Positions 16,063 to 63,750 of a stretch of 64,000 bases of DNA are shown here, piece by piece (positions within the stretch are counted from its first letter, which is position 1; every line of letters begins with the position of its first letter). The stretch covers positions 61,256,001-61,320,000 of the forward strand of contig CM060733.1 of the NCBI GenBank assembly GCA_030704615.1, read 5' to 3'. Origin of the DNA: Takakia lepidozioides. Taxonomy: Eukaryota > Plantae > Bryophyta. Below the pieces are notes generated by a model. The model did no database searches. It was not told the origin of the DNA and saw only the letters and a program-made list of their open reading frames with translations. Position numbers and translations under genes: made by a program.

Positions 16063-17599
16063 AACTCTCGACGAGTAATGGCAGTGCCAGTGCACTTCAA
16101 GTGAGAATAAAAGGACGTCTATAAAATATCACTGCCAGGGAGACAAATTATGCGTTCTTGCTTTGGGGATCGGGGCAAGAATGGAAGGACATTTACAAAG
16201 AATCCAAGAACGGCGAGTTCCAAAGACGCAGAACACCGCACGAAGAACCAAAAGTAGAAATATCCACACAAAGAGCTGAAGAAAGAACCCAGCTAGACGA
16301 AGCAGTCTAGATTAGACAATAGTTACTATAGAAAATATTGCGATGAGAAGAGGAAAGACGAGCAATTGGAGACGAAACCGAAGCAGCGCGGGAAGGAGAG
16401 CTCAAGCACGCTCTCAGAATGTATGTAAGGCCTTGATTGGGAAAAAAAAGAAATTAAAAGAGATAACTACAGCGAGACGATCAGAGGAGAGAATGGCAGA
16501 GAATCATACAAAGAGCGGGAACGATGGAAGAGCAGAGCAGAGCAGAAACCCAAAGCGATGGTGGAGCAGAGAGTGTGCAACCGATAGTGGGTTGTGGGAG
16601 GGAGGGAGACGGTGTTTTGTTTTGGTTTGTTGTGTGTTTGGTTGGTAGGTGCATCCACCTCACCTTGTCTGTCCGGGCAGGAGTCGAGCGCAGGACGAGG
16701 GACTCGAGAAACAAACAGAGAGGCCTCCGCCGTTCTTGTATCATCATCTCATGGCTAAGCCAATGAGCCCCGTGGAGCAGTTTGGATTGTTTGGAGGTTA
16801 CATGCTCCGTCAAATGAGAACTCCAGCATTGAAGTTTGTGTTGTGGTTCTTAACTTACAGCGAGGGAACACTGAAAGGGGATTATGTTCTGCAAATGCAC
16901 CTTCACACCAGACTCCAGAGATAATGAAAACCACATGAGCCAGCCCGTGGCTTTTAGTGCAGCGGTCTTCAATTGTTCATAATGAATTCATTCTTTTCAC
17001 AAAAGAGGTTAGGCTTTCTTGGCAAGTACATGTCATTCATGATTTATCGGGCTATCCATAGTGGCACTATTACCTGGTTCTCGGGGCGGCACTGGGACAC
17101 CCATCCCCCATTTTGAAAGCAAAAATGCATTATGTGAGGGGTGAAGGGCCAGGCCTATAAGGCCGTTCCGCCGATAGCCGTAGCCCAGAGGCTTCTAATG
17201 GCAGAAGGGACTCAGAGTGGGCCCTTCTGGGCTGTGAAATTGAGTCAGAGGTTTCTGGTGCCACCCGGAAGAGTATTACATCCGAAGGTTCACCGAATGA
17301 CCTTACAGTGCCTTAGTGAAACTGCAATATTGATGATCAAAGAGAAAACTAGGACTTGATTGTACACATTCATTCCAATTTTCCACCATGAGATAGAAGG
17401 GGGGTATCCAAGAGCACGGAAATGCCAGTGTTGAGTGGGGGATTGGTATGGCGTGAGCACAAAAAAAACGCCGGGTGAGTTAGGGTGATATGTATGGCAG
17501 CGGAAATACATATAATAGACGAACATAGGGTCTTTCTGCGTTAATAGGGTCTAAATGGTGTCTAAATATTATCTTAAACATATAGAAAGAGCTTGAAAG

Positions 17600-31030: not shown

Positions 31031-32049
31031 GTCCATAGGATCAGTGACAGGTGGACGTGGGTTAACATCCGGAGAGTGGCCGGCGGAAAAGTGGACGGAG
31101 GCAGGTTTAGAAATGGACACGTGGACGCCAGGGCGAGACACACAGCCGGACATGAATTGCAAGAACGGGTGTCTCAGTGATTCCAAAGGTGCAGCGGTTG
31201 TCTAGGGAAAACCCCTGGGGGGTGCACTCCAGCCAATATGTACCAGCCACGTGCGTGCACAGGAGGGGGTATTTTAAACCCCCCCATGTACAACATTATA
31301 CATAAATAGGGGGATTTAAAACACGTTAAATATAATGTTACAGGAGGGGGTTGTTGAATTGTAAGGGGTAGTCTAGTGGTAAGGACATCGTTTAGTCCGC
31401 GATGCATGGCGGGATCAAATCGCGGTATCCTTTTTTTTGCTCTCTCTTTTCCCTCCTCTCCTCTCATCTCCTCTCATCTCCTCTCCCCTCCTCTCCCGCG
31501 TTCGTGGGTGGGTGGTCGACCGCAGGGCATGGTATTCTTCTTGATGTTTACAAGGTTCTTGGGAGGGTCAGCTTGGTCTTAGCAAGCCGTGTTTCAATCT
31601 CTGCTTGCTCAGCTGCACTGTGGTGGTTCTCAAAGACCAATCCGACATTACCTTACTACAGCCATCAGCAGCACACAAAAGAGATCATTTTGGGGTTGAT
31701 GGGAGGTCAAATCCTCCATGGGTCACAACACAAGGTCAAGGACAATGTGGTGAGGGCACCTTCTTCTTCGACCTATTTCAGCCTGTTTTTCCCTCTCATC
31801 ACACTCGGCGCCCCTGAATTTGCAGCACGGAGCAGAGCTGACAAAAGTTTTTTAAAGATCCTTCACGATGGTGGGACAACTGCAGTCGCAAGGTGTGGCG
31901 TTTTCTTAAGGTACAATGTGAAGAAGTTTGTCCATCCTGGAAATGCGGGCTCTTGCCTCCTGTTAGTACCATGATTTGGTATTCTTCTAGCCCAGGCCAG
32001 TCACATTCGTTTGTTTTTGCAATGCGTGTGCGATCCTGGCAGCCCTGGA

Positions 32050-32480
32050 AAATGAGGAAGAGGTCCATGGTGGCATCATCAAAGCTGGGATTGTATCAGA
32101 TGTCAATCTGACCAGTGCCATGGTGGACATGTATGCCAAATGCGGGTGCATGAAGGATGCATTAAAGGGGGTGTTGGGCAGTATGGTTGAACGGAATGTG
32201 GTGTCATAGAGCGTGATGGTGGCATGCTATAAGCGCTACAAGGGCAGAGGAGGGAGGCTTTGGAGACCTCTGAGCACATGTACAAGCTTGGCAGCCCTGG
32301 AGATTGGAGAAGAGGTCCACGGTGGCATCGTCAAAGCTGTAGTGATTGTATCAGATGTCATTATGAAAGCTGCCCTGGCGGACATGTATGTCAAATGTGG
32401 GTATGTGTAAGATGCAAAGGGAGTGATGGGCAGCTAAGGGGTTGTGTATGCAATGTGGTGTCATGGAGCATAGTGATGGA
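32050..32480 (+). pseudogene. PLS-class pentatricopeptide repeat (PPR) gene fragments
   Basis: AALEIGEEVHGGIVKA..SDVIMKAALADMYVKCGYV*DAKGV and ..AMVDMYAKCGC.. match the plant PLS PPR L/S consensus (G.EVH..IVK.G..SDV...ALVDMYAKCG..EDA..VF). Confidence 0.85.
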
Positions 32481-32609
32481 GCAAAGGACGCGTTCCCCCC
32501 CTGAGTTTGAATTAAGTCTAGTGCAGAGAGGGTGATTTAGGGGCTGAGCTTTGGCTCAGCCTCAAGATTCAGAAAGTTGGTGCATAGAGTCCATTCAAAT
32601 GGAGTACTG

Positions 32610-34165
32610 TTGGGCAGACATGGAAAAGGGGGGAGAGGTGCATGGTGACATTGTCAAAAGCTGAAATTAATGTACCTTATGTTCTTCTGAATAGTGCCCC
32701 CTGGTGGACAGGTCTGCCAAATGCGGGTGCATAGAGGATGCAAAGGGAGTGTGGGGAAAACCTGGAAAAGGGGGAAGAGGTCCATGGTGACATTGTCAAA
32801 AGCTAGAATTGTACCTTATGTCATCTGAACAGTGCCCTGGTGGACAGGTCTGCCGAATGCGGGTGCGTAGAGGATGCAAATGGAGTGTTGGGCAGACCTG
32901 GAAAATGGGGAAGAGCCATGGTGACATTGTCAGAAGCTGGAATTGTACCTTATGTTATCTGAATAGTGCCCTGGTGGACAGGTCTGCCAAATGCGGGTGC
33001 GTAGAGGATGCAAAGGGAGTGTGGGGCAGACCTGGAAAGGGGGAAGCTGAGGTCCATGGTGACATTGTCAAAAGCTGGAATTGTACATTATGTCATTCTG
33101 AATAGTGCCCTGGTGGACAGGTCTGCCAAATGCGGGTGCGTAGAGGATGCAAAGGGAGTGTGGGGCAGACCTGGAAATGGGGGAAGCTGAGGTCCACGGT
33201 GACATTGTCAAAAGCTGGAGTTGTACCTTATGTCATTCTGAATAGTGCCCTGGTGGACAGGTCTGCCAAATGCGGGTGCGTAGAGGATGCAAAGGGAGTG
33301 TTGGGCAGACCTGGAAAAGGGGGAAGAGGTCCATGGTGACATTGTCAAAAGCTGGAATTGTACCTTATGTCATCCTGAATAGTGCCCTGGTGGACAGGTC
33401 TGCCAAATGCCGGTGCGTAGAGGATGCAAAGGGAGTGTGGGGCAGACCTGGAAAGGGGGAAGCTGAGGTCCATGGTGACATTATCAAAAGCTGGAATTGT
33501 ACATTATGTCATCTGAACAGTGCCCTGGTGGACAGGTCTGCCAAATGCGGGTGCGTAGAGGATGCAAAGGGAGTGTGGGGCAGACCTGGAAATGGGGGAA
33601 GCTGAGGTCCATGGTGACATTGTCAAAAGCTGTAATTGTACCTTATGTCATTCTGAATAGTGCCCTGGTGGACAGGTCTGCCAAATGCGGGTGCGTAGAG
33701 GATGCAAAGGGAGTGTTGGGCAGACCTGGAAAAGGGGGAAGAGGTCCACGGTGACATTGTCAAAAGCTGGAATTGTACCTTATGTCATCCTGAATAGTGC
33801 CCTGGTGGACAGGTCTGCCAAATGCGGGTGCGTAGAGGATGCAAAGGGAGTGTTGGGCAGACCTGGAAAAGGGGGAAGAGGTCCACGGTGACATTGTCAA
33901 AAGCTGGAATTGTACCTTATGTCATCCTGAATAGTGCCCTGGTGGACAGGTCTGCCAAATGCGGGTGCGTAGAGGATGCAAAGGGAGTGTTGGGCAGACC
34001 TGGAAAAGGGGGAAGAGGTCCACGGTGACATTGTCAAAAGCTGGAATTGTACCTTATGTCATCCTGAATAGTGCCCTGGTGGACAGGTCTGCCAAATGCG
34101 GGTGCATAGAGGATGCAAAGGGAGTGTGGGGCAGACCTGGAAAAGGAGGAAGAGGTCCATGGTGG
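32610..34165 (+). repeat. Tandem repeat, 11 copies of a 133-140 bp PPR-derived unit
   Basis: AA(T/C)AGTGCCCTGGTGGACAGGTCTGCC recurs at about 32690, 32828, 32962, 33101, 33241, 33378, 33516, 33656, 33793, 33930, 34067. Confidence 0.95.
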
Positions 34166-35098
34166 AATTGTTGTACTTTGTGTCATTCTGAGAGTCCAAA
34201 TTATCTAGGGAAGGAAAATCACTAAGGGATACATTTCACCCTGTTCTTCTCTCTTATCAGAATTGGCCCTAAAATTCCATGTTGAACTCTGCAATTCCCA
34301 ATGCCCTTTATTACTTAGGCTTTCACTTCCCCAAGCAACTTACATCTGTACCAGCCTTGAGTTCAACACATACTCTTAGTGCTCTTTATCATTAAAGTAT
34401 ACAGAATATACTGGCATGGTTCTGTTCACCAGCCATAGATAAGAGTATACATTGTACCATTTGGTGGTTAATCCAAAGATAACATTATACATCTGAAAAC
34501 CCCAGACTCTTGGAGATAAGATGTCTTGAACAATACATTCTGATTCAGAACTGAAACCATCGTACTATTTAGTATTTAATCAGCATGGTAGGTAGCTTAA
34601 AAACTACTCTATAAGCTGGCTCAACTTATTAGTATTATGGAAGATATGTGGTGTTGGAGAAAAACACAATTACAATGAGCGGAAAGTCTTTGACAATCTT
34701 ATCAAGGGCAAATAGATATCTTTTTAATTAATTTATTGGATTTTATTCTGTTTTTTAATTAATAAACTTGATATAATATAAAAACATACATATACATATT
34801 TGAGGGTATTTTTTAATGATTGAAAAAGAGAATATACATATAGAGGGGGTTTTTTTTTTAAATTATAAATTTTTGTATATGTACAGGAGAGGGTTTTATA
34901 ATCCTCAAAAAGTATGTACAGAGGGGATATAAATTATCCGAGGACCCGTATACAGGGGGTTTTTTTATTAGTCGGCGAACGCACGTGATACGCACATTTT
35001 ATAAAAAGTGCACCCCCCAGGGGAAAACCCTGCTGTGCATGTAATACCCACACCTGTGACGGAGGTACCTGGGGTAGAATATCAAGACACTGCAGCAC

Positions 35099-37548: not shown

Positions 37549-40524
37549 CTATCCCAAGCAGTGTGGACACAACCAATCTCCGTCAGGAACCTTCTCAAGA
37601 GGTGGTGTCAAGCATCCCATATGCCAACCCCTTGAGCACCGATCACACACCAGCATGGTGGCTGCCCCTTTGGCAGACCCACAGAGCATGCACCTCAAAC
37701 CTGCAGGTACCACTGCCAAGTTTGGGTCAACTCTGCCATCGACATTGGGAAGGTGACATGGCGCACAATTACGCACATGGTCTTTCCAAGTCATGCCATC
37801 CCGACCCTCTAAGATCAGGACCCCTGAGGGCAACACCTCTCGAACCCTCAGAATAACACGCCCTGCAGTAACATCCAGAGTCGTAGGAGCAGTCTGCTGC
37901 AAATAAACATAGTCACCAGGGCTAAACCTCCGAACCCCAGGACGATATCCTCCACCACGTATAGTGGCATACCTCAACGTATCACGGTGCTGTGCAATGG
38001 CAAGGTTCTCAAAAGCCATGGGCATGACTTTCTTGAACAACTCTGCACGCTGATCACATGCACGTACCCACACGTCCGGATCGTCAAGGTTAAGGACTTG
38101 AGCAGTGTCCCTACGAATGGCTGCAGGCAAATCCGGCTCTCGGCCAAAGAGAAGGAAATATGGTGAGAAGGAGGCAAGTGATGCTTGTTTGCTGAACCTG
38201 TAGCCCATGGCTAACCAAGGAACCTGAAGATCCCAATCTCCTAGGTGTCCCTTCTGCAAGCCATACTTGCGCAAACCCCTCTTCACCGTCTGAACAACTC
38301 TCTCTGCTAAGCCATCGGCCTCAGGATGATCCCGAGAAGTGGTGCGGTGGTCTATCAAGGCTTTATCACACAAAGCCTGAAACTCCCCCAAGAACTCTCT
38401 CCCTTGGTCCGTGAGTACCTCAGCTGGAGCACCAAATCGGCTAAGCACACGATCCAAGAATGCATACGCAGCCCCCTCACTAGCCTTGTCAGGCAATGGA
38501 ACCAACTCAATCCACTTGGAGAAGTGCTCCACCATCACCAACACATATCTGTGGTGGCGCATAGTCAGTGGCAACGGTCCTGCGAAGTCAAGACTCCATC
38601 TGTAGCCCAATCCCATGATAGGTAAAGGATGCAACTGTGGTGTAGGGGCGTTGAATGAAGCACGCACCCTGTCACACACCATGCACCTAGCCACAAACTG
38701 TTGCACCTCTGTATGCATACCACGCCACCAATACTGCCCCTGCAGTAAACTGTGAGTGCGTCGCACTCCAAAATGCCCCAACTCCTCATGGGCATGCCGC
38801 ACTAACCGTGCACGCTGTGTGGGGTGAGGCACAATCCTCACCCGACCATCCTCCCACACTCGAAGTAGGTGTATCCCCTCCCACTTGAACCTCTTGGCTC
38901 GTTGCAGGATCCGATCCCTCTCCCTGGCAGTCACAATGGCTGCCGTGTCTCCCGTGCGGAGGTAGTCCAACACAGCCGAATCCTCATGTATATCTCTGGC
39001 ACCACCTAGCTCATCACTAGCCTCAGGGTCCTCAGACACTCCGTCTACAGTCATCCCTGTTGTAGGTCCAATCTGACCTCCCGATGCCAAGATACACAAA
39101 AATGCAGATGCGTGCCATCCCGGCACCATCTCCTCGTCCGTCTCACCATGCCACCGAGCTCCAGTGTCATCCTGCTGGCTCATGCATGGATTGCGACTCA
39201 ATCCATCCGCATCCCGATTGACCAAACCCGGTCGATGCACAACCTGAAAGTCATACTCCTGGAGTATAAGTGCCCACCGTGCAAGCTTCCCCGTAAGCTT
39301 GTCTGACTCCATCAACCACTTGAGTGGCTGGTGATCCGTGACAAGGGTGAAAAGATTGCCGTATAGATAGCACCTGAAGTGTGCCACGGCCCACACTGCA
39401 GCTAAGCACTCTCCCTCATATGAGCTGTACTTAGCCTCTGCAGCGTTGTTCGAGCGGCTAGGGTAAGCCACTACGAACTCTCTTCCCTCATCATCCACCT
39501 GTGTGAGCACCGCTCCAAGCCCCAGCATGCTCCAATCCGTATGCAGCTGAAAGGGACGCCCCCTGATAGGTCGTCTCAAGATAGGCGCCGAGGTCAACCT
39601 CGCCTTGAGCTCTTGAAAAGCTCGTTCCTGCTCATCTTCCCACTGCCACTCCTGGTCCACCTTGGTCAGCTTGGTTAGAGCCTTTGCAATGGTACTAAAT
39701 CCCTTGACAAACCGTCTATAATAGTTTGCCAACCCCATGAAAGCTCGAACTCGGCTCACATCCGTGGGGCGTGGAATTTGTGCAATGGCCTCTATCTTAG
39801 TTTGTTGTACCCCCAATCCTCCAGGATATATCATGTGACCCAGATACTCAATCTGGTTGTGGAAAAACTTGCACTTCCCCGGATGCAACTTCAATCCGTG
39901 CGCTCTCAAGCGCTCCAATACCACCTGAAGGTGTCTCTCATGCTCCTCCATCGTAACACTAAAGATGATGATGTCATCTATGTAGCACCGAGCAAAGTCC
40001 ACCCCTGCTAGAATCCTATCCATGACTCTCTGAAACTCTGCAGGAGCATTCTTAAGCCCAAATGGTAAGAACCGCCACTGATATAGGCAATCCTTGCCAT
40101 GCTCATTGATCCCCCAGAATGTCGTCTTCTGCTTGTCCGCCTCCTTGATTGGCAACTGGTGATATCCGGATCGTAAATCCAAAGTGCTAAAGGCCTTAGC
40201 ATGCCCGATGGCATCAAAGATCTCCTCTGGTGTTGGCATGGCATACTTATCGGACTTGGTCTGACGATTTACAGGCCGGTAATCACCGCACATACGTCTC
40301 TCCGTCCAATTGCCATAGACATCCTTCTTGGCTGGCATCACTGTGGCTGAAGCATACTCTCCACCAGAGAGCTCCACCAAACCTGCCTCCCAGAGATCTT
40401 GAGTCCTCATCTGAATCAAAGACCTCTCCATGTCACTGTATCTATAGGGTCTCCGAAAGATTGGCGTGTCAGTGGCCAACTCAATACGGATCTCTTGACC
40501 CTTCAGTGCTCCCAAGTCCTTCAA
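37549..40524 (-). CDS. RT - RNase H - integrase - PHD finger (991 uninterrupted codons)
   Basis: LDLRSGYHQ, PFGLKNAP, YIDD; LHTDWS, SSYEGECLA, TDHQPL; H..H..C..C, SLDFAG, TDQGREF, DGLAER; C4HC3 PHD CMLC..CDRC...WHMGC..WLCPHC. Confidence 0.96.
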   Translation of the reverse strand: MKDLGALKGQEIRIELATDTPIFRRPYRYSDMERSLIQMRTQDLWEAGLVELSGGEYASATVMPAKKDVYGNWTERRMCGDYRPVNRQTKSDKYAMPTPEEIFDAIGHAKAFSTLDLRSGYHQLPIKEADKQKTTFWGINEHGKDCLYQWRFLPFGLKNAPAEFQRVMDRILAGVDFARCYIDDIIIFSVTMEEHERHLQVVLERLRAHGLKLHPGKCKFFHNQIEYLGHMIYPGGLGVQQTKIEAIAQIPRPTDVSRVRAFMGLANYYRRFVKGFSTIAKALTKLTKVDQEWQWEDEQERAFQELKARLTSAPILRRPIRGRPFQLHTDWSMLGLGAVLTQVDDEGREFVVAYPSRSNNAAEAKYSSYEGECLAAVWAVAHFRCYLYGNLFTLVTDHQPLKWLMESDKLTGKLARWALILQEYDFQVVHRPGLVNRDADGLSRNPCMSQQDDTGARWHGETDEEMVPGWHASAFLCILASGGQIGPTTGMTVDGVSEDPEASDELGGARDIHEDSAVLDYLRTGDTAAIVTARERDRILQRAKRFKWEGIHLLRVWEDGRVRIVPHPTQRARLVRHAHEELGHFGVRRTHSLLQGQYWWRGMHTEVQQFVARCMVCDRVRASFNAPTPQLHPLPIMGLGYRWSLDFAGPLPLTMRHHRYVLVMVEHFSKWIELVPLPDKASEGAAYAFLDRVLSRFGAPAEVLTDQGREFLGEFQALCDKALIDHRTTSRDHPEADGLAERVVQTVKRGLRKYGLQKGHLGDWDLQVPWLAMGYRFSKQASLASFSPYFLLFGREPDLPAAIRRDTAQVLNLDDPDVWVRACDQRAELFKKVMPMAFENLAIAQHRDTLRYATIRGGGYRPGVRRFSPGDYVYLQQTAPTTLDVTAGRVILRVREVLPSGVLILEGRDGMTWKDHVRNCAPCHLPNVDGRVDPNLAVVPAGLRCMLCGSAKGAATMLVCDRCSRGWHMGCLTPPLEKVPDGDWLCPHCLG

Positions 40525-40989
40525 ACTGAAGGCAAAGCAATTCTGTAAGCCCTCAGGAACCGCCGTATACGTCGTCTCTCTCCTCCGGTGACAATGGGTC
40601 CAATGTCAGGCTCCCAATTGTCCTCCGTAACTACAACCTTAAGTCCAGTGGGCTTAGAGGTAGAGGACGCGTCCCGTGGTTGCTATGCTGCAACCTCTTG
40701 AGCAGTACTCCCTACCTGCTCAGTCAATGACAAGGCCTCATCCTGCCCCATCATCTCATCCTTGAGGACCTCCTCAACCCGAGAAGAATCCCCAACCTCA
40801 TCCATCACAGCCGCCTTGGCTGCCAACTCCCTCTGAACCTCAAGCACCTCCCACGTGTGCCATGGATGCATGCACCCCGTGGTCTTCATATGCTCGCCCC
40901 CACTCACTGCCTGTACCGTCTCGGTAGGCAGAGAGACCATTGAGGGAAGTGTATTCCGCACTCTGCGTTGCTCAGCTAGAGCCAAGCTG

Positions 40990-41930
40990 ATAATCCAGGT
41001 CAAGCAATTGAGATCCATTGCTTGCCCCAACACTTGACGACGTGATGCCTCAGAAAGAGACGACACCGCCGTGATACCAGTGGTAAAACCCATTGCCCGC
41101 TCACGCTCGTCAGCATTAGGCTCCACTAACTGCTGCAACTAAGCATCCCACAGGAGGCCAGGTCCACTATCCCGGAAAGCATGCGATCCTGGGAAGCTGA
41201 GCAGTGTAGGTAATGCTGCTCGTGGTTGACCCACCTTGTTGACCACTGCCAAAGGCGAACGGTCATCGTGTCTCACACGTTGAGACTACCTCCCTGTGTC
41301 CAGAATGTTATCCACTGTGAGATGTGCTGGCCGCTGCACCCCATCAAATGCACGCTTGAGCAGTGCGGGTGGCATCATGTTAGTCCACCATAGCCGTGGA
41401 CGATGAGCCCGTGACCCCACTGTAGCTGCATCTAGCAACACTGCTGACCCAAGCCACGACCGGACTTGATGCACACTGGCCATCACCCTGGCCCGAGAAT
41501 CGCCCATCAGTGGCACATTCTCCAAGATGTATGCTGGAGATACAGCTTGATGAAGCTGCAAGTGGCGCAAAACCCGCACCATCTCCCAAAACAGACCCGA
41601 CCTCGAGTCTCGCAATCCATTGCCATGCCCGGCTGATGAATGCCCTTGGCAGGGCCAACCTGCCACTACCAGATCAATGGAGCCAACCCGCTCCAAATCC
41701 TGCGCCCCCAGCAACGAAATGTCTGCTGGCAAGGCCTGCTCATATCCACGAATTGCAGACACCGACAACAACTCAGGGTACCGCTGCACCAACTGAGCAA
41801 CATGGCGAAGTGAAATGCGTCGTGCAGTCTCATCCCTCTCCACATACAGGTAACGCCGAACTCGTACACTTGCCTGTAACACAGCAGCCAATCCGGTGCT
41901 GATCCCGCCAAACAAGTCCAGAAGACAAAT
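40990..41930 (-). pseudogene. DNMT3-like C5 cytosine DNA methyltransferase domain within pol (in-frame TAGs at 41286 and 41139)
   Basis: Motif I LDLFGGISTG, II YVERD, III ADI, IV VAGWPCQGHS, VI YILENV, VIII RAHRPRLWWTN, IX ERAMGF..T, X RRQVLGQAMD, all in one frame and canonical order. Confidence 0.93.
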
Positions 41931-42299
41931 GCCTTCATCCGGAGACTGCCACACAATAGGTGTGGTGTCCAATGGAGACAATTGAGGTGGTCCTGGTGCA
42001 ATCCCCACACTCTCCTCCTCTCCTGACGGTACAAAAGCCTCCACCCAGGCTTGTTGCACCCGTCGATCAGCATCCCGCTGCAAATCCTTGCTCGTACCCC
42101 ACAATGGAGTCTGAGCAACCATGGTAGGCAACTCCGCCATACCATACATGTCATCCTGCTCTCCCGGAGGTGGTACATCCTCTGAATGAGCATTGCCCTC
42201 AAGCAACTCTCTAGGCCAACTCACTACCGCTGTGAATGCTGCTAGTGTCGGCATCTTGCCTCGCTGGGCAACCGCAACTCCTCCTATGAACGTCACAGG

Positions 42300-42505
42300 G
42301 AGCTGCACACGCCGGCCCTCCCCCGACTGCCATGCAGGCCTATAGGAAGCTGACTCCTCCCAAAAATCCAGGGTGAAGCCCATGGGGTACAACACTGCCC
42401 CACCAACCAGGACATCGTATGAGACTGCGTCTGTCACAATGGCCTTGGCTCGCATCACTGAGCCATCTGTAGGGTGATCCGGCCGTAGTCTGATAGCCAA
42501 CTCAT
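42300..42505 (-). pseudogene. C-terminal half of retropepsin protease
   Basis: AIVTDAVSYDVLVGGAVLYPMGFTLDF, in frame with the DNMT; no D-S/T-G motif or gag recognisable upstream. Confidence 0.6.
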
Positions 42506-43922
42506 GCCATTTCTCCAAGGGGTTTAGCCATGCCAAGCTAGGGTTTGTGTCTCTTGGACTCTAGGCTTCTTTCCACCGAGCTATGGTGGCTGTGAGGAAA
42601 TCAGCAAGGTATGCTCTTTCGGCTCCCACACACCACCATAGTAGCCCTAAGCCATGAGGTGGTTGCCACAAACCAAGCCTTCTTTCTCACTTAGCCTCTC
42701 CAAACACGCCACTAAACTCAATGGCAAACAACCAAGCCCTGCTGGTTCCCAACCCTTGTGAGCACTCATTCAAGCACTCTCATTGGCCATAGCATCTGTC
42801 TTAGAGCCTATTCCAGCCCTCTACACCTGTTGCTTCCAGAGTTGCGCTCCCTTCAAGCTTGAAGTTGAAACCCCAACTCACATAGGCCCTACAAGTGCTG
42901 TTCTTTCACTCCAAGTGGAAACCCGCCCTAGACCTTCCGTTCTAGCTCTCTAAAGCTTGAAAACAAGAGCCTCAATGGGCTGAAGGCATGCTCCACACAT
43001 GCCCCACTCTCACCATAAGAGAATCAGCTCCTTTGCTTCATTTCTTGCACCCACAAACCTGAAAGTGCAAGCCTTCATCAGGCTGATAGCATGCTCCACA
43101 CATGCATTGCCCTCACATAAGGGAAGTCAGCCCTTCCCTCTTCCTTGCTTGCCCTCCAAGCTTGAAGATGGAAGCTTCAATGAGCCGAATACATGCTCCA
43201 CACATGCAACCTCTTCACACAAGAGATATCAGCCCCCTATCTTGGCTCCTTGGCTCCTTGATGCTCTCTAAGACAAGACTAAGCACTCCATAGCCTTTGC
43301 CAAGCTCCTGAAACCCTAAGGCTTACATTTCCAGCCACAAGACACTTCTCTTGTGGTGCAAGAGCTCTTCTTCCAAGCTCTGAAACCCTAGGTGCACATT
43401 CCATGGCCTTGCCGCACCTCTTAGCTCCTGTTCCAGCCCTGCTCTTGCCATGACAAGAGCCCTCTCAATGCTGAAGCTTGAGATTCAAACCCAATCTCAC
43501 CATACTCCACAAAGTGCACTGATTTGCCCCAAGCCAAATCAGCCTTTTCGCTTGGTCTTGCAATCCTTCACACAATGAAAGCTCGCATTCCCAAGTCCAG
43601 TTCTCAGCTTTGCCACCAAAGCCACTATAACCTGCTCTTGACTGGTCCTCTTCCCAATCGTGCTTGCTCATGCATGTACACAATCTGAAACCATCAAGGT
43701 GCTCTGGAATTACCTGCAGTATGGTGCTTTCATCTCTGAAGCTGAAGATCGAATGCCAAGGTTTACCACCTCGTAACCCACATCGCCTCCGCTTCTAACA
43801 ACCAAGAGCTCCACGGTGCTCCTTGCATAACAACTTGGTTTCCCTCATTCTCAAGCAAAAACCACAAGTGCTACAACTAACTCGTATCTAGCACTCATAG
43901 ATACGAGCTGATCTTTCTCGAG

Positions 43923-50800: not shown

Positions 50801-53800
50801 ACCCCACTCTTCCGAAGTTTCGTTGTGGGGAAAGCAATCGGCATCTCGACTGGTACAATGAGCTTCACCGCATCGTCGCCTCCTGGTGGACCTTTGCTCC
50901 GCAGCACTCCTCAATGGAGTTCACGGCGGAGGAGGCCACCCGTGTTTTGGACAAAGCCACTGAGTATGGAGTGGCGCTTCTGGTAGAGGAGACCGAGCCA
51001 CCGCTTACCGCGTAGTTCTTTCTCATGCATGACCCACGCCCACTGGACATAAGGCACATGGCCATCGCCCACCCAATATTTGGTGTTCGTCTGAAACACT
51101 TAGCGAGCTTGACAGAGAGTGCTTTTCAGGAGATGGCAGATTGTTTCCTCCACCGTCAATGGATGCATTTGGCAATTTCAGGTCTTACACCAAATTAAAA
51201 AAATACCTTCACAATTTGCGGATGGACCTGCTGCACGGAAGCGAAGAGGCTCGGGAAAGTATCACGCAAGACGCCATGATGTGGTTTGTGACTGTGCAGG
51301 AGCGTACGGTTTTGGACATTGCAACAACAAACGACATGCTTTCCAAGTGCTCTGGAGCGGGTTTCCAGCAGAGGACCGTGTTGCAGCTCTGGGAGAGCTT
51401 GACGAGGCCTTCATGGATCGGCTGATGAAAGATATTGGGCTGTGGACCACAGTCCTAGATCATGGTATGTCATCAGACCTAAGAGACCTTGTTAACAGAC
51501 CTTGTCGGTGACCCTGAACGTAGACCTTCTCGCAAACTTTATCCCAGACCATGTGAACCATGACAACCAACAGACGTTGTGAAGTAGACCACGTCAAGCA
51601 GCAAACCCCCATGTATTCTTCCATTTGTTAGCAGACCAGGGATGAGTGCTTTGTTTCTGACAATGTTTGTGACATTGTTGCAGAGTACGACCTGGAAGAC
51701 GAGCTTGTTCGGAATGCTCTTGACCAATACGCCAATGGCGCACGGCAACTTCTAAGAGCCCTCCGTGGCCATATTGGGGTCGAGTCACCCGTTAAATGCA
51801 TGCTCATTAGAGTTCGTACAACAACAGACCCTTCATCTACACAGAACCCAACTCCCATGGAGTCCCAGGAGGACCGCAGCGAGCAGACCCTTCGCAGCAA
51901 AATCCGAAGTACCGACATGCGAACCAGCAGACCTTGTCGATGGAGAACAAGGAACAGCAGACCCCCGACTGGATTGTCAATACTCCCCAGCCAGACAATG
52001 TGGTGGGACACCCAAAGTCCGAGGCCCTTTTTCTCGGATCGTTGGCCAGACTTCGTGAGACTCGTTTGGGTGACAAAAATTTGTACTTGCCAAAACAGAC
52101 TTTCGTGGAGGCATTGCACACCTTACCCGAAATTACCGGGGAGACATTGGTTATGCAGACCTTTCCAGATAACGTCCACCTTCCCAGAGTAGACCGCTGC
52201 GGTGGAAAGCAGACCAGAGCATACCAGACCACACCAGACCACACAAGACCAGACCAGACCGGAGGAGTCCCCACTAGACCAGACCACACCAGACCACACC
52301 AGAGCGAAGGACTCCAGACGAGCCGAGTGCACAACAGACCAGACCCCAGAAGACTAGAGGATACCAGACCAGAGCACACCACACCAGACCATATCAGAGC
52401 ACACCTTTCCCGACTAGTGCAGACCTGATCAAACCTTGCCGGACCAAAGGAGAGAAGATCAGATCTTGCCGGAGGACACCCTGCATGGGACATTGCTTGA
52501 CAACAACACCGCAGAAGTGCATCGCGACGCAGGTATGGGCGCTGACACCTCACCATTCCAACATCAGCAGACCCTGCCAGTGCAAGACATCAGACCATCT
52601 GACATTCATGAAGACCTGGCGGAAAAAACCTAGGAAACGACGCCGATCCTCCCTGGCACTTACGAGTTGCCGAAAATGAGATGAGCAATTCTTTTCCCCC
52701 CCACTGCAACATTTGCTGAGAAGCAGAGAATGGTAGTGGACTTTACCCTTGTCACCAGACCTTCTGACATAGCACAGCCTGAACAGAACCGAGAAGGCAT
52801 CAGTGCTCATTTATCCATAGTACAGACCAATTCTGCAATTGCAACTATGGACTATAACTGTGACAGTTTGGTCTGTGACCTTCCCCATCTGTTAGAGGCA
52901 GGGTCTACAGAAGATGATGATGCATCTTTGGCCATTTTGCCGCTTACTTGTGTGGACCCCGACTCCTCTGTAGACCCACAACTGGCATTAGACCAATCCG
53001 TTGATAGGGTGCTCCTTATGTTCGACTCCACCACTGACAAGGTAGACCCCACAGCAGACCATTCAGCAGACCTTGCCGAAACCCATGCACATGTTTCTGT
53101 CCCTTCTCATTATCTGGATCCAGTCACTATAGTCAAAGATGTACCTGCCACAGGAGTGGCGCAATTGCAGACACCCACAGCGCCCACAAAGGTCAGATTC
53201 CATTGCATTTTTGCAGTCCAAGAGAAACAGGAATCCGAGGCTACAGACCGATTGCTTGAGTTGTGGTGTAGGTTTTATCATAAGGATCTCGATGTCAAGA
53301 CATTTAATGATGTTGCTATCTTGCCGACGTGTGGGTTTGGAGTGTAGTGAAGATTCACTGGAGTGCAGGTCAGGAACGGGTTCGCTCGCAGGTGGAGCAC
53401 GGATTGACAATGCATGGTATGGGCAAGGATCTGAAGACCTGCAAGTACATACTGGTACCAATAGTTGATGGGTAAGTGTCCTGCATTTCGACTGTTTTTC
53501 TGCCCTTTATCATTGGTCCACCATCATTGGTCTGCAGCATTGGTACATGGTCTGCCCAGGTCTACCAGTCTGCTGAATGGGTCTGCCATTTTGATTTGCA
53601 GCTTTTCCCTTGTGCTGATGCGCCCTGCAGTGTGGCAGGTCTCATTGGAGTTTGGTGAATATTGACCGGGTGCTCCGCATGCTCACTCATCTGAACTCAA
53701 TCAAGGAGATGCACAAACCCGTGGAGATACTGCCATGGGCTCGAAATGTGTATGGAGCATGTCTCGGCTTGGAGCCACACACGGCGTCATGGGACGAGGC

Positions 53801-54134
53801 CACTGCATTCAATTGTCATGTCCCTGAAGTGCCGCAACAACCCTTTTCGTGGGAATGTGGCTTTTACGTCATGTCCTTTATCGAGGGGTTCTACGACCAG
53901 TTGAAGGGCGATCATGGCAAAGGACTTAGAGAGAGAGGAAAGTCGTTTACCTCAAAGTGGTTTACATTCTGCAATGCTTGCAGGCAACGCTTAAAGTGTG
54001 TTGAGTACATTTTGAAAGCACTTAGTACTATGGAGAATGTAGTTGTAGAGAGGCAGTTGTCATCTAGGAAGATGTCGGACGTGTCAGACTCTTCCGATGT
54101 CCGGGTTATTTCTTCTAGGCCTGGCAATAAATGA
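47849..54134 (+). pseudogene. MULE accessory gene(s): N-terminal C2H2-like finger, C-terminal Ulp1/C48 SUMO-protease domain
   Basis: FQCPFCPDIVNDKETLNHHV; KYILVPIVDG|(intron)|SHWSLVNID..HLNS; VPQQPFSWECGFYVMSF. Exon structure between these is uncertain. Confidence 0.7.
49595..50527. mobile_element. hAT-type MITE
   Basis: TIR CAGTGTTGTG(T/C)GGGT; degenerate 8-bp TSD GTTTGTAT/GTCTATAT; dense subterminal CCGGGT/ACCCG repeats around an AT-rich core. Confidence 0.85.
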
Positions 54135-54888: not shown

Positions 54889-56130
54889 TTATGGACGATG
54901 AGACACCCGCCTCATAGCCGAGTAAACGTGGCTAACAGGGGGAAGGGCAGACACACGTTTCCCCCCATTTAGTTTCATTTTCCGCCGAGCTTGAAAATGT
55001 TCCACAAAATCCTTTTTCCTCCTCAATGACATGTTGTTGTTGTCTTTTACACGATTGAACGCTCGTGCTACAGTCGGGTGTAACATGCCAGAAGTTTTTT
55101 TGAGGATGTCCTGCATCTGTCCTCGGCAAACACGCACCGCAGACAAGCAATGGTGTATAAGGTATGCGTCGTTGTGTACAAGGTCAAGTAGGTCGGTTAT
55201 CTCCCGTTTCAAAATAGCTTCCAACAAGTCTGGCGTGAGCAATGACTTCGCCGTGTTCGGGGTCACGTTTGCACACACATTGTCGTTACCGCTTTCGAGG
55301 TCGCATGTTGCATGCCGTCGTGTTCGTCCAATTTCTCCAACCCACCGTGAACAGTACCGAGGTGGGTACCACATGTCCAGACAATGAGACCGTCTCGCAG
55401 GTCTACTTTTAGCAACTTTATGACCCGAACCTGGTGCTTGTACACATTGCCTTTCAGCACCCACGGGCAGGTGCAACAGGCCCACTGCGACTCTAGATTG
55501 AACACGGTGTACGTTGTATTCGAATCGGAGGAGCTGATAACGTAAGCAGGCTGCCCAGGCGCTGCAGGCAAAGTCGCACGTGAAAGAGGTATATCACGGG
55601 CTACACATATTGCACTGAAAATGTGCTTTTCCTGTTTATCGTTGCAAACAAACCCATGCGTCTTCAGATGAATGCCGTACCAGTAGTGGATAAGTACACG
55701 CCCAGTCAACTCCCATATGAGCCAGTCGGCTCTTCGACTCGTCATTTTGCCTTTGCCCATATTAAGTCTCGCCTTTAAGTTTCCGTGGTATGCCTCGATA
55801 TTTGCATTAGTATCGTGACTTGCATGTGGAATGTTGCGGGCAGCAGTACACCACATAGCGATTTTGGGAACCCAGTACACATGAATGTAGCGGAGGAACA
55901 ACTGACCAGCAAGATATTTCTTTTTCATTGCCTTCAATTTTTTCTTAACCCATTTCACAGCTTCGTCTTCTTTCTGCGGTCCACCTCTGCAATACATAAG
56001 GTCGCCCATATCTGCTAACAATTTTGAGGATGTTCCCGGATCACTGATTTTCTGGCATGATTGCTTGACCCAGACCTTCCGTACATGCCAAAGGCAGAAG
56101 AAAATGCATAATCCTGTGAAACAAACCTGC
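54889..56130 (-). pseudogene. MULE transposase C-terminal half with SWIM zinc finger
   Basis: FFCLWHVRKVW (CxxH), DTNANIEAYHGNLK (catalytic Glu region), WACCTCPW..GNVYKHQ (SWIM); N-terminus cut off by the CACTA-like insertion. Confidence 0.85.
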
Positions 56131-56155
56131 ATGCGGCCACAAAGCGTCGCCCCCA

Positions 56156-56545
56156 GTGAAGTGGAGAAGCCAGCCCTTTCTGGCGACGGCCGGTCATCAC
56201 AAGCCCAAAAAAAAAACCCTTTCTTGCCCTTTCTTTCATCGCAACCCTTTTTTGCGACGCCCGGACGTCGCATGGTGGCATGAAGGCCAAAAGGCCCCTG
56301 CGACGGCCGGGCGTCGCAAACAGCCCGGCTGCCATATTCTTTCAAATAAAAAAACATGTCACATTTGGGGACGGCGTGCCGTCGCCAATTGTGACCCCCG
56401 ACCTCATAAATCCATTCTTTCATAACAAAAAAACAGGTCGTAGTTGGCGACGGTTGGCCGTCGCCTTTTGCGACCCCCGGCCTTATAAATCCTAAAAACC
56501 GCGTCGCAGGTTGCGACGCGTGGGGGTCGCAGACAGCGACTGCAG
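56156..56545. repeat. CACTA-type subterminal repeat field
   Basis: More than 10 direct and inverted GCGAC(G/C)/CGTCGC motifs, many as short palindromes; no intact CACTA pentamer found at the boundary. Confidence 0.7.
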
Positions 56546-56884: not shown

Positions 56885-59800
56885 CTAATCAACTTGAACA
56901 TCATCATCCGGAGCTTCTTCATCCTCATCAAGCTGCAAGTCTTCTTGGTCGTTGGAGTCATCGTCATAAATGGCCCGGCCCTCAAAAGGCACCTCCGAAT
57001 CATTCTCCACCTCGTTGTCAATGGTTGCGTCTTCGTCTCCTTCTCCAACATCTGTATCTTCTAGAGCTTCATCATATAGGGTCCATGATGCATTGTCCGG
57101 GGCGTCATCATCCTCTTCTATCCCCTCTGCCCAACCTCCATCATCAGCATCATTATGACCAGTCTCTCCGTCCACCGCAATTTCCTCACCCCATGGAGAT
57201 CCAAGACCATGATAGATACGTCTTCTTCTTGGCTGAGCATGCACAACCACCTTCCAATTCCCCCCTCTTGTTTTATCATCGGAGAAGAAAACTTGCTCCA
57301 TGTCTGAAGGACGTGAAAAAGACTCATCGGAGGGACGATGGGTAGGGTTGAGCCTATCTGCATTGACGCGCATGAAACCACAATCATCTTGCACTAGTGT
57401 TGCGGAGGGCCCCACAAGATGTGGCTGGAACCAACTTCTCTTGAAGAGAAGAGGCCGGTACCTTGTATACTGAAGTTAGAGTATGCTCTCAAGCTCTCCA
57501 ATGTACTCAAGTTTGCTCATAGCAGGTCGTGTATCTCCCTTGCCCCACACGGAATCTTGCCAATATGTGGCACACAAGCCAGAATCAAAGGTTGTTTTGG
57601 GCTTCATGTCAAGAGCACGAATGCGGAAATGACGACCGTGAACCCAAACCGCCGTGTATGAGGTCGCGAATTGAGAGGGGCCCTTTCAATGTCTTGCACC
57701 AAATCTGAAACCACCTTTCCTTGAGCAACAACGTCATAAACTGAAGTCCGAAGCCACTGTTGGAATGAACTTAGAGGCTGCAATTCTATGGGCAAATTTT
57801 GTGAAGGAACATTCCGGCGGCCCGCTGCTCGTCGTGGGCGTCTAGTAACCGGCCTTGGATGGTCCGTCTCCATGCAAGCGTCTCTTCCTCTCGTTGCTAA
57901 ACAAGATTATTGTATCTTGCCTCCCACTCATGTATGGATGGGGTGTTCTTCAGTATGAAGTCATGCGCTTGCTCAATCACCAAGGTCGGCAATTTTACCC
58001 TCTTCGATTTTTTGGGCAAAACGATGTCTTTGGTTCGTGCATCCTCCTCTTCCTTCCACATCCGAGGGGCTTCCTCATCCACCCTTATCATGTACTCCGT
58101 GCAATAGAACATAGCTTCTTGCAATGTATACCCCTCCGCCATGCTACCCTCTGGGTGCGCCATTTGTCTTACAAATCCTTTCAAAGTCTTCATATAACGC
58201 TCAAGGAAGTACATCCACCGAGAATGAACGGGGCCGACAATCGAAGCCTCTTCCACTAAGTGCACTACCAAGTGCACTTGGATGTCAAAGAAGGAGAGAG
58301 GAAGGTGCATCTCCAACATACACATTACCTCCGCCGCCTCCTTCTTCATGCGTGGAAAATCTGCTTCTTCCAACTCTTTGGAGCAAATCCACCGGAACAA
58401 GCCTCCCAATCTATAGATTGTCTCACGACCCTCGGGAGTCAATGTTCCACGTACTGCAATGGGCAAGATGTCTTGCAATAGATTGTGGTAGTCATGAGAC
58501 TTCAAACCATGGACCCCGTCTTCTTCGCTGAACTTCGTACGGAGGGATGACCCACTATGTGTTCGGACAGCACTTATGGTAGCTATCACTTTCTTGTATT
58601 CCTCCTTTGTCCATTGCCAAGGTGCGCGCCTATATTTCCACCGTACAACACCATTTGGGTCCACACCATTTTGTTCGGCCCATAGATGGCGCATGCGACC
58701 CTGCTCCTCAAGCTCCTTTCTAACACCAAGAGAATCTCCTTTTGCAGCCACTCCCTTCTTTGTCGGCGTGCCATGAAGAACCCAAAAAAGGGACGAGCAG
58801 ACATTCTTCTCAATATGCATGGGATCTAGAAGATGGCGAATCTTCAGGTCCTACATATATCCCCACCCACAAAGACTTACACAATTTTTTTTTACGTGAA
58901 AGTGACAATGCAACGCATACCAAATGTGCAATATCACATGCATGCATAGGGATATTGATGGTGTTTTTGAGGAATATGTACCGCCCAATATGACAACTCG
59001 TAGAAGATTGAAAGTCGTTTCATGTCGGGCACGTCCACTTCACCGTCCGTGCCCGCATGGGCCTCCTTCCATCGGTCCTCCCAAAACTTCCCGGACGGTG
59101 TCATAGGGGGGGGGACGTACTTCCTCTTTGCCATCAAACAAGTGTTTCTCTCTTCTTCTCCATCGATGGCTCATAGGAAGAAATTTGCGGTAGTTGGGAT
59201 ACATCATCTTGTGAAGATGGCGGGAGCTATGTGCATCAAGATCATTGCATAATGCAAGCATGCATGGTACCCTTTGGTGCTTAGCCCCGAGCAAAAAGTT
59301 AGTCATGTACTACACATCCCGCCACATTAGCAAAAACAAAAAGTTGTCATGTGCATGGCCCATAATGCCATCTACCCCACTACGGTACACAAGACTATCG
59401 CCGCTACTTCAATCAATCCCAATCCTCATCGATATTATCCGGCATTGACAAGTGAATGTACGCGGGTTGTTCATGGGGAACATAATATACCTGGATAATC
59501 ATGCATTGTCCAAAGCAAGATGTCTCTCATCTGAAAAGATTGTCCGGCCATAGGGTCAAGTGAAGCATCCAATGTCGGGCCCCCCCTCCACAACTCCTTA
59601 AGTTCATCAACAAGAGGTCGCAAGTACGTGTCCATGTTTGTCACTTGTTTTTTCCCTATGAGACATTCACGTCATTGTTTCAATGCTCCACCAATATGCA
59701 AATTATACTACAAAATGAATTACACGTCTTACTCCATGATTATGTCACTCATCAATCTTGCATCCGAATTGCGTCAGAGATCAGAAGTTTAATGTAAAGT

Positions 59801-61070
59801 CTAAGGCAATAAAAAACATGAAATGAGTACACTCACCTGGCACAATGGCAGCCAACATGATATGGCATTTTTTAATTGAAAGATACGGAGGGATGTTATA
59901 ATTCACCATGGTCACCGGCCAAGTGGAATGACTACATGACTGGACAGAGAATGGGTTGACCCCATCCGAGGAGAAGCCGAGGTGGACATGTCGTGGGTCC
60001 TCCAAAAGAAAAGGCCACATCTCTTCAATATGCCTCCATGCTTGTGAATCTTGTGGCCTGCACACCTTTCCCGGGGGGCTCCGATGCGAAACGTGCCATC
60101 TCATGAGTCTGGCCAATTCGGGGCTTCGGTACTATGCCCTCAATCGCGGGATGATCGGAAAGTAATGCATTTTCTAGGATGAAATACCCCACGTCCCCCA
60201 CATGTAATCATCCCATTAGCACACGTAATACAACACCCTTATGTCTTTTCCTTTATGCAGCCTCTCCCTCATTTGGGTGTGAATGGTCAAAACCGAACGT
60301 CGCTCCTTCCACTCCTCACTCGCTCCTTCCAAAACCACAATCAGATCTTGCATGAGTACTACTCTCTAAACCCTAAACTTTGTGGAATACACTTTACATA
60401 CATTGAGAAGATTAAATAAAGTAATCTTCATGCGAGGAAGAATGACGCTTATACCTTGCATGGTACTTTTTTCCCTTGGACAACATCCCGATATCGGTCT
60501 TTCTTGCACTTTGGGCACTTAGTGAGATGCGAATCCTCTCCGTAGTATAGGGTTTTATCACATGGACATACATGAAAAATCTTATAGCCCATTCCCACAG
60601 AGTCCAAGATTTCGCGCGCCTCTTTCCGCGACCGTGACATCTTGGGTTTCAAGTGTGGAGCAAGGATATAGTCTGCAATAGTTCGCATTATGGCAGACAT
60701 CCCAACATTACTTATGCCAAATTGAATTTGAAGATTGAGCAAAAGTAAGATTGTTGAAAGTCAACTCACTTTCGTCCCTTCGTACAAGGGAGTTCTCGCC
60801 TCCCTCTCCATGTCATTTGAGGGGGCCATTGCAGGATCATCGATTGGTCGGGTTCCCTCTTCATGGGATGCATCAGCGCCTACATGATGCATTAAGAGAT
60901 CCTCCATGGCTTGCACATCCTCCTCGTTAATTCCATGCTCATTGTTGTTGTCACTGTCACTGTCACTGTCATCGTCATCATCATCCGGTACCGTGGGGGC
61001 GGCGTCTCGCCCATGGCTCCCGCCTGATGTACTTGGGTTATTTTCGGATGGGGTGCCAAGAGAAAGGACC
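56885..61070 (-). pseudogene. CACTA/En-Spm (TNP2-like) transposase, multi-exon, decayed
   Basis: HVCPCDKTLY..CPKC..RY; LGFSSDGVNPF..STWPV..NYNIPP; MHDYPG; MHIEKNV; LKSHDYH; FFDIQVHLVVHL..GPVHSRWMYFLERYMKTLKGFVR..PEGSMAEGY; QVFFSDD..WKVV. Confidence 0.93.
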
Positions 61071-62074
61071 GGGAAGGGATGGACAAAGTCTTGATATGAA
61101 CAAATGAACATAGAGACATATATTATAATGTGTCATTGCAACCATACACTTCATTATAAGCGAAATGCAAACAACAACCTTCAATGTGTGCGTGCATCAA
61201 CTATGTCATTCAATAATTACTGTATGTGCGCAACGTACACGCATGCAAAGTTTCAAATAATTCCCCCCCCCCCCAATGACGCATTCACCCTATCAACCAA
61301 TTTTTGTTTATTAATGTGAAAGAAAATCCTCTCATGCCATTGCACCCAACAAACGGATGTGGCTCAAGCTTCATTTTTTCCTACATGTGCTTAAATATGT
61401 GTGCAACACTTTTACAAAGATCCAGCAGAAAAAAAAACATTTGCCTCCCCAACGACACACTCACCCTTGCACCAATTTTGAATTAAATCGAATTTAAATG
61501 AATTTAAAATAAATATTTGCAGTTAGAAAATATCTGATTGCGGTTTTGAGGGGCGTAATGATTTTATTTTCAGCTCTATTTTGTTTTGTGACATCGAGCT
61601 TTGCACCACTACATCCATGCAAAAAATTGGACCAAAAACAAATGGAAAAAAAATAAGTGTGTTTCTAGGGTCACTTTTGCAGAACTCTCTATGAAGAGTG
61701 CATGAAGTTACAAATATTTCAACTTTGGAGTGTAAATGAGAGAACAAAATCTGGTTATGGGTCGAAATGACTTCTTTTTACTCCCAAATTTTGCACGCAC
61801 ATTGCATATGCTACCATTAAGCATATGGCTTGAAAATGAAAAAAAAAAAAAAACCATCTGCAGGCGAAATGCAATTTTCCGTCTCTATGACACATAGCTG
61901 CGTTCAACACTAGAATGACCCATTGAATAAACTTGGTTCAAGCTCATATTTGGTCCACATGTGCATAAGTATGTTTAGATCACATATGCAAAGTTGCAAC
62001 CCACACGAGCAACAAGAAAAAAATTTAACATCAATCGATTAATCGGATGTATACAAAGTACATCATGAGAATAT

Positions 62075-63750
62075 CTACAATGCCCCTCTACGCGATCCCT
62101 GTCTCAAAGGAACCCTATTTCTATCATACACATCCCACTCACACTGTAATCGGAGGTCCCAATCATCCCGGGAGAACTCGTATGATGCAAATAGTTCGCT
62201 GCCAGCCCTAATAGTCCTACTAGCACATGTCATCACAAACATGTGCATCCCCTCATAGTATACTGGCGTATGACCACAAAAGCTCTCATGCCCATCGCTT
62301 CGCTCGTGCCATACTACATTGGTTCTCTTAGGATGACCAAAAGAACTATTGACCAGCCCAACAACATTACCGAAGATGTCGGGGTCACCATCACAAAATC
62401 TGATCTCAATGGGAGACCACCCCCATCTACGTACATCCTGTCCGTTGACACACAAAATATAGGGTAGGATGTATGGGGCTTGGAGGCGTAATGTACAGAA
62501 CTTCGCGGAGGTGTAGTATGGACCGTAGTAGGGAAACAAGTCCACCATGCTGTTTCTCCGAGGAGGAACCACAATATCATTGACCGTGAATAAACCCCAA
62601 CCATAGCAGGGTCTGTAGCGGCTTTGTCAACATACCGTCTCCCCCAATACTCGAACTCCACATTTTCTCGGATGGGGGTGGGAGGGTCGAGATGATTCCC
62701 CCAACAACGAGGCTGGATGGTCCTCAGTAACATACTCCTATACGCTTCCCATCGGGGGCGAGGATCCGGCTCAGGCCTCCCAAGCCGAAGGGGAGGAAAC
62801 CTAGGGCGAAGCCGACCCCTTCTAGGGGTTCGGGGGGCACATGCACGTGGAGGTGGAGGTGGTACTGCTGGCGGAGGAGATGAAAGTGGAGGTGGTTGAG
62901 GATGTAATGTCGGAGGTAATGTCGGGGGTACAACGTCCGGATCAGGTATTACCGGAGGTGGATCAGACAAAGAAACAGACGGGGGGGGGGAGGGGGGTGG
63001 GGGGTGGGTCCCTGCTCGTCGCCGGCCATAACGCCTACGACACCTACGATACCCCTCGACCCTACGCATCTCATCTACGTGCTGCTGGGGGAACCAACTA
63101 GCCACATCGGGCACATGCTCTTGCACAAATTCTGCAAGTAGATTGGCGCGAAATGCCTCATGTGCAATGTGATTGCGAGTTTGGGTATCAAGTCGTGGCT
63201 CCAATGTGCGTAGTGAACGACGCATCAATACTTATGTCGTAATTTTGATTCATGTATGCTTACCAATCATACTATATTATTAGATAAACCTAAATGTACC
63301 TTAAATGAATGTTAATGAGAGGGGTGGGAAAAACACTCACCTTTGCCGCATCTGCAATCTTGTTATTCTTGTAATGTTTTCGACAACATGCGGTCACCGC
63401 CTCGGTGGTCTGGTGCTGCCTGGCGGTATCCGTTCCTAACACTTAGTGCACCAACACTCAATCCTGGGGGGGGGGGGGGTGGGTCAAAGATGGATGTGGT
63501 TGGACGGGGTGGCCCGCGAGGGGGCAACCCGCGGCGTGCCCGACTCGATCCCAGAGTGTCAACATCCTCCGCATCACCTGAAATTTGGCCCCGGTCCCTT
63601 CTACGATTGTGCCCGGTAGCCTGTATTGGATCAGGTGCAATGAGTGGCTCCTCGCCACGAAAAACGGTCGCTCTAGGGCCACAATCGATATGTGGTACTA
63701 CCTCCCCATCCTCGAGGGAGACGGGTCGATGTTTCCTCACCATCGCATCC
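62075..63750 (-). pseudogene. SET-domain protein with Pro-rich linker (frameshift and stops), next to the CACTA transposase
   Basis: CYGWGLFTV..FPYYG..FCDG...GNVVGLVNSS....N..ASRTIRAGSELFASY; a 1-nt G-run frameshift near 62641 links it to ORF 62314-63228; phase-consistent intron 63340-63231 to an upstream exon. Confidence 0.75.

Follow-up and report, generated by a model that had tools for sequence, protein, structure and literature searches.

What is a SET domain doing beside the transposase of a CACTA element in a moss, and does it belong to that element? This question is raised by a locus near one edge of the window, by which we mean the whole stretch of 64,000 nucleotides of Takakia lepidozioides DNA that was analysed. 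A sequence-only reading had recognised there a gene resembling SET-domain lysine methyltransferases, on the same strand as the transposase and about 1 kb upstream of it, and had proposed a TE-borne histone-modifying or decoy protein. We retain from this proposal a SET-fold protein carried by a CACTA family, but not the separate upstream gene, the SET stretch being probably an exon nested in the transposase unit instead. The parts of the locus are the following:

63341..63743, minus strand: exon 1, with an ATG at 63743, a low-complexity stretch, a CxCxxC...H motif at 63456-63388 and a phase-0 GT donor
63199..63340, minus strand: GT..AG intron of 142 nt in phase 0, placed by a contig joint in run X9 and by its splice sites
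62075..63198, minus strand: SET exon, a Pro/Arg-rich linker followed by the SET domain (~62660-62175) and its own stop
61091..62074, minus strand: spacer running from the SET stop to the transposase exon, which likely makes up the 3' portion of the transposase's first intron
56885..61090, minus strand: pseudogene of a CACTA/EnSpm tnp2 (TnpD-type) transposase, in several exons with many stops and frameshifts
56138..56540, no strand: subterminal repeat block with GCGAC/GTCGC palindromes, at the 3' end of the element

Repeats abound in the window, whose plant-like DNA includes Gypsy elements and a KH-domain gene, the latter seen as host gene exons on the minus strand at 14243-16128 (KH domains, E 3e-28). 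On the plus strand, a tandem array at 32033-34222 is built of ~137-nt units that resemble degenerate PPR repeats, and a fragment of a Ulp1-type protease at 51811-54134 (Peptidase_C48, E 1.3e-6) stands behind a pentamer-repeat ORF and is likely the cargo of another DNA transposon. One Gypsy element (37549-42560, minus strand) carries reverse transcriptase, RNase H, integrase and a C-terminal PHD finger (E 1.7e-10); upstream we found a C5 cytosine methyltransferase ORF (E 5.3e-13), and direct repeats near 36772 and 43923 bracket the two. A DNMT-carrying Gypsy has been published for the charophyte Klebsormidium (PMC5890265).

The motifs GWGLF, YYG, GNVVGLVNSS..N and RTIRAGSELFASY share one minus-strand frame, 62626-62075, just as had been claimed. 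The roles of the SET motifs (GxG, YxG, N-H-S and Tyr) are known, and GxG motif I, YxG, the Asn of N-H-S and the catalytic Tyr are all present in the window ORF. Scored against the Pfam SET profile (PF00856), in the absence of the first SET strand owing to a frameshift, the ORF fell short of the 22.4-bit cut-off, with 13.4 bits (E 0.11). Word-index searches with the window ORF, near and longer, gave no match, and a PDB sequence search with this single ORF gave one chance match only. A full HMMER scan of 1.84 billion representatives yielded 41 relatives of the window SET protein, with 31-54% identity, and a profile built from 30 of them finds the window ORF with an E value of 3e-40; the same profile weakly matches the frame upstream, 63231-62317 (E 0.025), where the first strand of the domain is located. 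The SET motifs of the window ORF exceed chance and the SET domain is real. An HMM or structure search had been proposed as a check of the domain: 34 of the 41 relatives match Pfam SET at E<=0.5 and 19 lie above the cut-off, and the Foldseek matches listed for the window model are all SET proteins. With 22/41 members below the Pfam cut-off, standard annotation misses this family.

Among the relatives, the named ones are from Riccia sorocarpa, a liverwort, and Psilotum nudum, a fern. No relatives of the SET family were found in the viral contigs or in the prokaryotic genomes searched, and a metagenome scan returned two loci whose lengths, 2.0 and 1.1 kb, do not suffice to reach a transposase. 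Among proteins of 805-2295 aa, no fusion of SET with a transposase turned up when alignment A2 was the query, which is weak evidence. In the tree, the window protein stands beside a group containing Psilotum with support of 89/83, under the support threshold. One SET-family copy, at 319-696 of L002, is broken off after the N-x-S motif and continues into unrelated sequence.

The AlphaFold model of the window ORF (pLDDT 79.5) has SET proteins only among the Foldseek matches listed, the best E value being 1.1e-5. Its fold resembles SETD8 (E 1e-5), MLL1 and SET7/9, and MLL5, an inactive SET protein, is also among the matches. The model of a relative, P0021, has a higher pLDDT of 90.9; it matches SETD8 and MLL1 with E values of 2e-7 to 4e-7, and COMPASS, SETD8 and EZH2 with Z values of 13.0-13.3 and rmsd of 2.3-2.5 over 120-124 residues. 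When the family profile was compared with PDB, the top two matches (E 2e-4) were SET proteins of bacteria, with mainly MLL, EZH2 and SETD8 after them. Since the top Z values are tied, the fold names neither a subfamily nor a substrate. The family is like the SET domains of SETD8/KMT5A, SET7/9, MLL and EZH2 in its fold (Z 12-13.3) and in the GxG, YxG, N and GxExxxxY positions, but it is unlike them in sequence (~15-27% identity), in having G and S for R and H in and around N-H-S, in lacking the post-SET zinc cluster and in the small residue at the Tyr/Phe switch; the likeness seen is one of fold.

Conservation was read from 31 aligned rows: besides the window ORF, these are 30 of the 41 relatives, those that are short or partial being left aside; pairwise identity in it is 23-72%, with a median of 38%. 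The second G of GxG and the E of GxE are found in 31/31 rows, and the Gly of YxG in 30/31, preceded by Tyr in 19 and by Phe in 12. The N of NxS is Asn in 26/31 rows and Gln in four. The final catalytic Tyr is kept in 29/31 rows, the two exceptions being Riccia gene models with differing ends. Within R-F-I-N-H-S, on the other hand, Arg is replaced by Gly in 28 rows of 31 and His by Ser in 30, no row has a post-SET Cys cluster (0/31), and the tail after the last Tyr counts at most 13 residues in 26/31 rows. At the Tyr/Phe switch site most rows have a small residue, which, judging from known SET enzymes, would allow multiple methylation. The canonical plant histone SET classes (SUV, ASH, TRX, E(z)) are marked by R/H-x-x-N-H-S with its His and by pre-SET or post-SET Cys clusters; with Ser at the His site in 30/31 rows and a post-SET cluster in none, the family does not fit them.

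The sequence-only reading had pointed to NSS for NHS and to the absent post-SET Cys cluster. Both observations are true, but both are family-wide and neither supports a decoy, since the GxG, NS and catalytic Tyr positions persist in the family over an identity range of 23-72%. As far as the aligned sequences tell, Ser for His and the absent cluster are traits of the family and not decay of the window copy. A SET fold that is non-catalytic, as a reader or decoy binding histone tails or host SET partners, would nevertheless fit G for R, S for H, the missing post-SET zinc cluster, the short tails (13 residues or fewer in 26/31) and the presence of MLL5 among the fold matches. Loss of the His in N-H-S kills SUV39H1, but the bacterial SET protein LegAS4, which has Phe at this position, is an active H3K14 methyltransferase, and the retention of the catalytic Tyr, the Asn and GxG in such divergent sequences also argues against a non-catalytic fold, which we regard as unlikely. 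Methyltransferase activity is predicted for the family from its conserved positions, and we consider it fairly probable.

Does this predicted enzyme belong to the CACTA element? The transposase, said to lie about 1 kb downstream of SET on the same strand, does so and is a tnp2 pseudogene with Transposase_21 (E 4.6e-25 and 5.4e-8), DUF4218 (E 6.2e-33) and, weakly, DUF4216 (E 1.3e-4). The ORF 57897-58850 contains the H(3)H motif and the region of the final Glu of a tnp2-type DDE transposase; in the C(2)C motif the first Cys is present and the second position is Tyr in the decayed window copy. The element probably ends near 56138-56146, with CAC at 56138. There are 14 GCGAC/GTCGC words in 56146-56540, compared with 0.48 per 500 nt over the window, and the block also contains repeats of 78 nt (direct) and 70 nt (inverted). 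Neither CACTA nor CACTG stands at the start of this near-end block, and no TnpA-like gene lies between the transposase and the near end. The far end is, as the sequence-only reading stated, outside the window, the partner terminus lying beyond 64000.

Next to the near end, at 54889-56125 on the minus strand, we observed a Mutator-like transposase remnant with no Pfam match and an X1 depth of ~5,000; its CxC motif resembles a SWIM motif. The CACTA element seems to be inserted into or beside this remnant.

The linkage of SET with the transposase in other copies, which had been proposed as a check, is seen in three ways. Firstly, the summed contig depth in X1 is high all along these parts: exon 1 and the SET core have 53,000-77,000, the proline-rich linker 28,000, the spacer 62,000-158,000 and the transposase 74,000-134,000, with a drop to ~5,000-10,000 left of 56350; this summed depth is not a copy number (single contigs listed in X1 have depths of 60-86), and X1 may be the source sample of the window. 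In X5, from another study, depth is of the same order across all parts of the element. Secondly, an X1 contig in which 60965 is joined directly to 62297 represents a deletion copy with SET and transposase both present. Thirdly, the Riccia gene models P0024 and P0035 run from SET into a match to the start of the window transposase (0/300 shuffles each), and by eye the same transposase-like stretch is present in the cluster members P0075 and P0076. Compared with two separate transposase pieces, P0024 was not significant by pairwise BLAST; it was significant when the transposase was read across the stop. The transposase link is found in 2/41 relatives, most of the others being on short contigs. 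Taken from the sequence data, this is strong indirect support for the SET exon belonging to a highly repeated CACTA family.

We then consider how the SET exon is expressed. In one X9 contig, 63200 and 63377 are connected through 35 letters, 32 of which match 63343-63377 by eye, and the splice of exon 1 to the SET exon rests on this one contig; runs X8 and X9 are guessed to be RNA. X8 contains joints at transposase introns, for example 60454-60174, and the joints of both runs fit spliced transcripts since they are placed at GT..AG borders. The intron 63199-63340 is retained in one contig each of X6, X7 and X8. An acceptor at 63131, with exon 1 read in another frame, had been a candidate and was overturned by the X9 joint.

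The CxCxxC..H motif of exon 1 also precedes SET in P0006, P0008 and L001, and in L001 we observed the same CxCxxC..H exon, a phase-0 intron at the equivalent place and a SET exon. A profile of the motif from these three relatives ranks the stretch 63456-63388 first of 6384 six-frame pieces (E 0.03); in pairwise tests the motif did not reach significance (17 and 38 of 300 shuffles). Pfam gave no match for exon 1 of L001 or for the motif in P0006 and P0008, including the transposase-associated domain PF13963, which we presume the motif to resemble, and no cluster of the ESM Atlas matched it. A DNA-binding role of this motif is a guess.

The reading frame of exon 1 continues into either exon, SET or transposase. 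The first transposase exon is opened by a phase-0 acceptor at 61091/61090, which is CAG in most copies and CAA in the window copy; the change 61091 T>C has a depth of 89,570 of 90,546 in X1 and is found in all of X5. Because both acceptors are in phase 0 and the transposase exon lacks a start ahead of its acidic linker, we infer that exon 1 probably also splices to the transposase, which would place the SET exon in its first intron. At the corresponding position the Riccia model P0076 reads Q-G-F-D, as would suit an acceptor. No joint of exon 1 to the transposase was found among the joints examined (15/16). Within the spacer, a motif at 61671-61708 is common to other repeats, with loose ends on both sides (X1, X5, X6, X7, X9) and raised depth.

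Could the SET exon instead belong to an accessory gene that has a first exon to itself, arranged in tandem with a transposase gene transcribed independently? The only splice seen from exon 1 is to SET, the SET exon has its own stop, and the EN/SPM families of Arabidopsis are described as using both split-gene and spliced layouts (PMC13547354). Against such a separate gene, the CAG acceptor in front of the transposase exon is conserved and in phase with exon 1, the spacer shows no evident upstream exon apart from exon 1, and Q-G-F-D in P0076 fits the acceptor. We find the separate gene rather improbable and keep to the nested exon.

The window copy itself is dead, with at least five lesions. 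In the SET exon one base is absent at 62600/62601, where X1, X5, X6 and X9 have an extra C; since the exon is broken by this missing base, the TGA at 62627-62629 is out of frame. A further four lesions lie in exon 1: the G-run 63467-63480, the stops 63436-63438 and 63394-63396, and a base absent at 63376. The G-run is lengthened, being 8 letters shorter in an X8 contig, which brings the frames into register, and both stops are sense codons in other copies. The transposase of the window copy likewise has stops that are absent from other copies. The repair that had been offered for the gene, one G in the G-run and TGA>CGA, is therefore wrong; other copies show instead the missing base at 62600/62601 and the four lesions of exon 1. 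Among the variant rows of the SET core, 7/8 change a residue; these are mostly private changes of the window copy and so unsuited to dN/dS. Over X1, 192/391 variant places are A>G or T>C, compared with 62 in the opposite direction, as expected from decay of methylated C.

Our preferred reading, which we hold to be reasonably probable as a whole, is a nested SET exon that shares exon 1 with the transposase and encodes a predicted lysine methyltransferase that would act on chromatin for the CACTA element. One transcript would give two products: use of the distal acceptor would yield the transposase, and use of the proximal acceptor a finger-linker-SET protein of ~500 aa. The SET product may then fill the role that TnpA has in En/Spm, by methylating histones at the CACTA element. 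In maize En/Spm and Arabidopsis ATENSPM3, of the same superfamily, one unit likewise likely yields the transposase and an accessory protein, TnpA and TnpD arising by alternative splicing as these sources describe it (PMC13547354; bioRxiv 10.64898/2026.08.24.746577). TnpA is described as a DNA-binding anti-silencing factor, and that of Spm3 acts against silencing (bioRxiv 10.64898/2026.08.24.746577), whereas the accessory product of the window has an enzyme fold; TnpA-like domains are reported only from flowering plants in PMC13547354. That histones are the substrate of the predicted enzyme is possible, at somewhat less than an even chance, and an anti-silencing role, suggested by analogy with TnpA, is doubtful.

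An active enzyme could also modify a non-histone protein, such as the element's own transposase, and so tune transposition. The fold is equally near to SETD8, SET7/9, MLL and EZH2 (Z within ~1), and enzymes of the SET7/9 type do methylate non-histone proteins. The SET cargo of transposons published so far in PMC12730594 is read there as histone-directed, itself a prediction, and this counts against a non-histone substrate. We judge such a substrate distinctly improbable, and continue with chromatin as the proposed target.

That the SET stretch is a neutrally drifting host fragment of Pack-CACTA type or a separate insertion, as the pseudogene state of the window copy and the habit of CACTA elements of capturing host fragments might suggest, is largely refuted and very improbable, the 41 relatives forming a family of their own with no ordinary host SET protein among the named matches, the transposase link recurring in the liverwort, the two-exon layout in L001, and the key residues being conserved.

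SET cargo had been said not to be standard for CACTA elements. It is indeed unusual, but it has been published for Plavaka, of the same superfamily: the red-algal Plavaka PAG2 has a SET domain in a highly repeated EnSpm/CACTA-superfamily element, and modulation of chromatin was proposed for it (bioRxiv 10.1101/2025.02.11.637652). By its description, PAG2 differs in being a gene on its own, part of a three-gene Plavaka cassette, in which SET is fused to an N6-adenine DNA methylase, whereas the window element has a lone SET after a CxCxxC exon, likely nested, in a tnp2-type plant CACTA. SET genes are also carried by HarbingerS and MuDR of Phytophthora and by Helitrons (cited in PMC12730594 and bioRxiv 10.1101/2025.02.11.637652); like the window element these are DNA transposons encoding a SET protein, but they belong to other superfamilies and hosts and, as described, have it as a separate accessory gene. 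SET is likewise included in a survey of 823 chromatin-transposon fusion models (bioRxiv 10.1101/2021.11.30.470311). In the literature searched we found no description of a land-plant CACTA with SET, and the preprint supplements and Repbase could hold one. SET cargo being already published in other transposon lineages, what is added here is one more divergent, conserved transposon-borne SET family, with RNA-like splice evidence.

The known anti-silencing factors of plant transposons, VANC and TnpA, are DNA-binding proteins of flowering plants. In CACTA elements of seed-free plants (liverwort, moss, fern), the place of TnpA may be filled by an active histone lysine methyltransferase, made from the transposase gene by switching the splice acceptor and guided by the shared zinc-finger exon to the subterminal repeats of that element itself; in this full form we think the proposal unlikely, though if it were true it would mean a transposon that writes its own histone mark. 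The SET family, across liverwort, fern and other CACTA elements, is in any case a testable candidate for a chromatin writer of transposons in seed-free plants.
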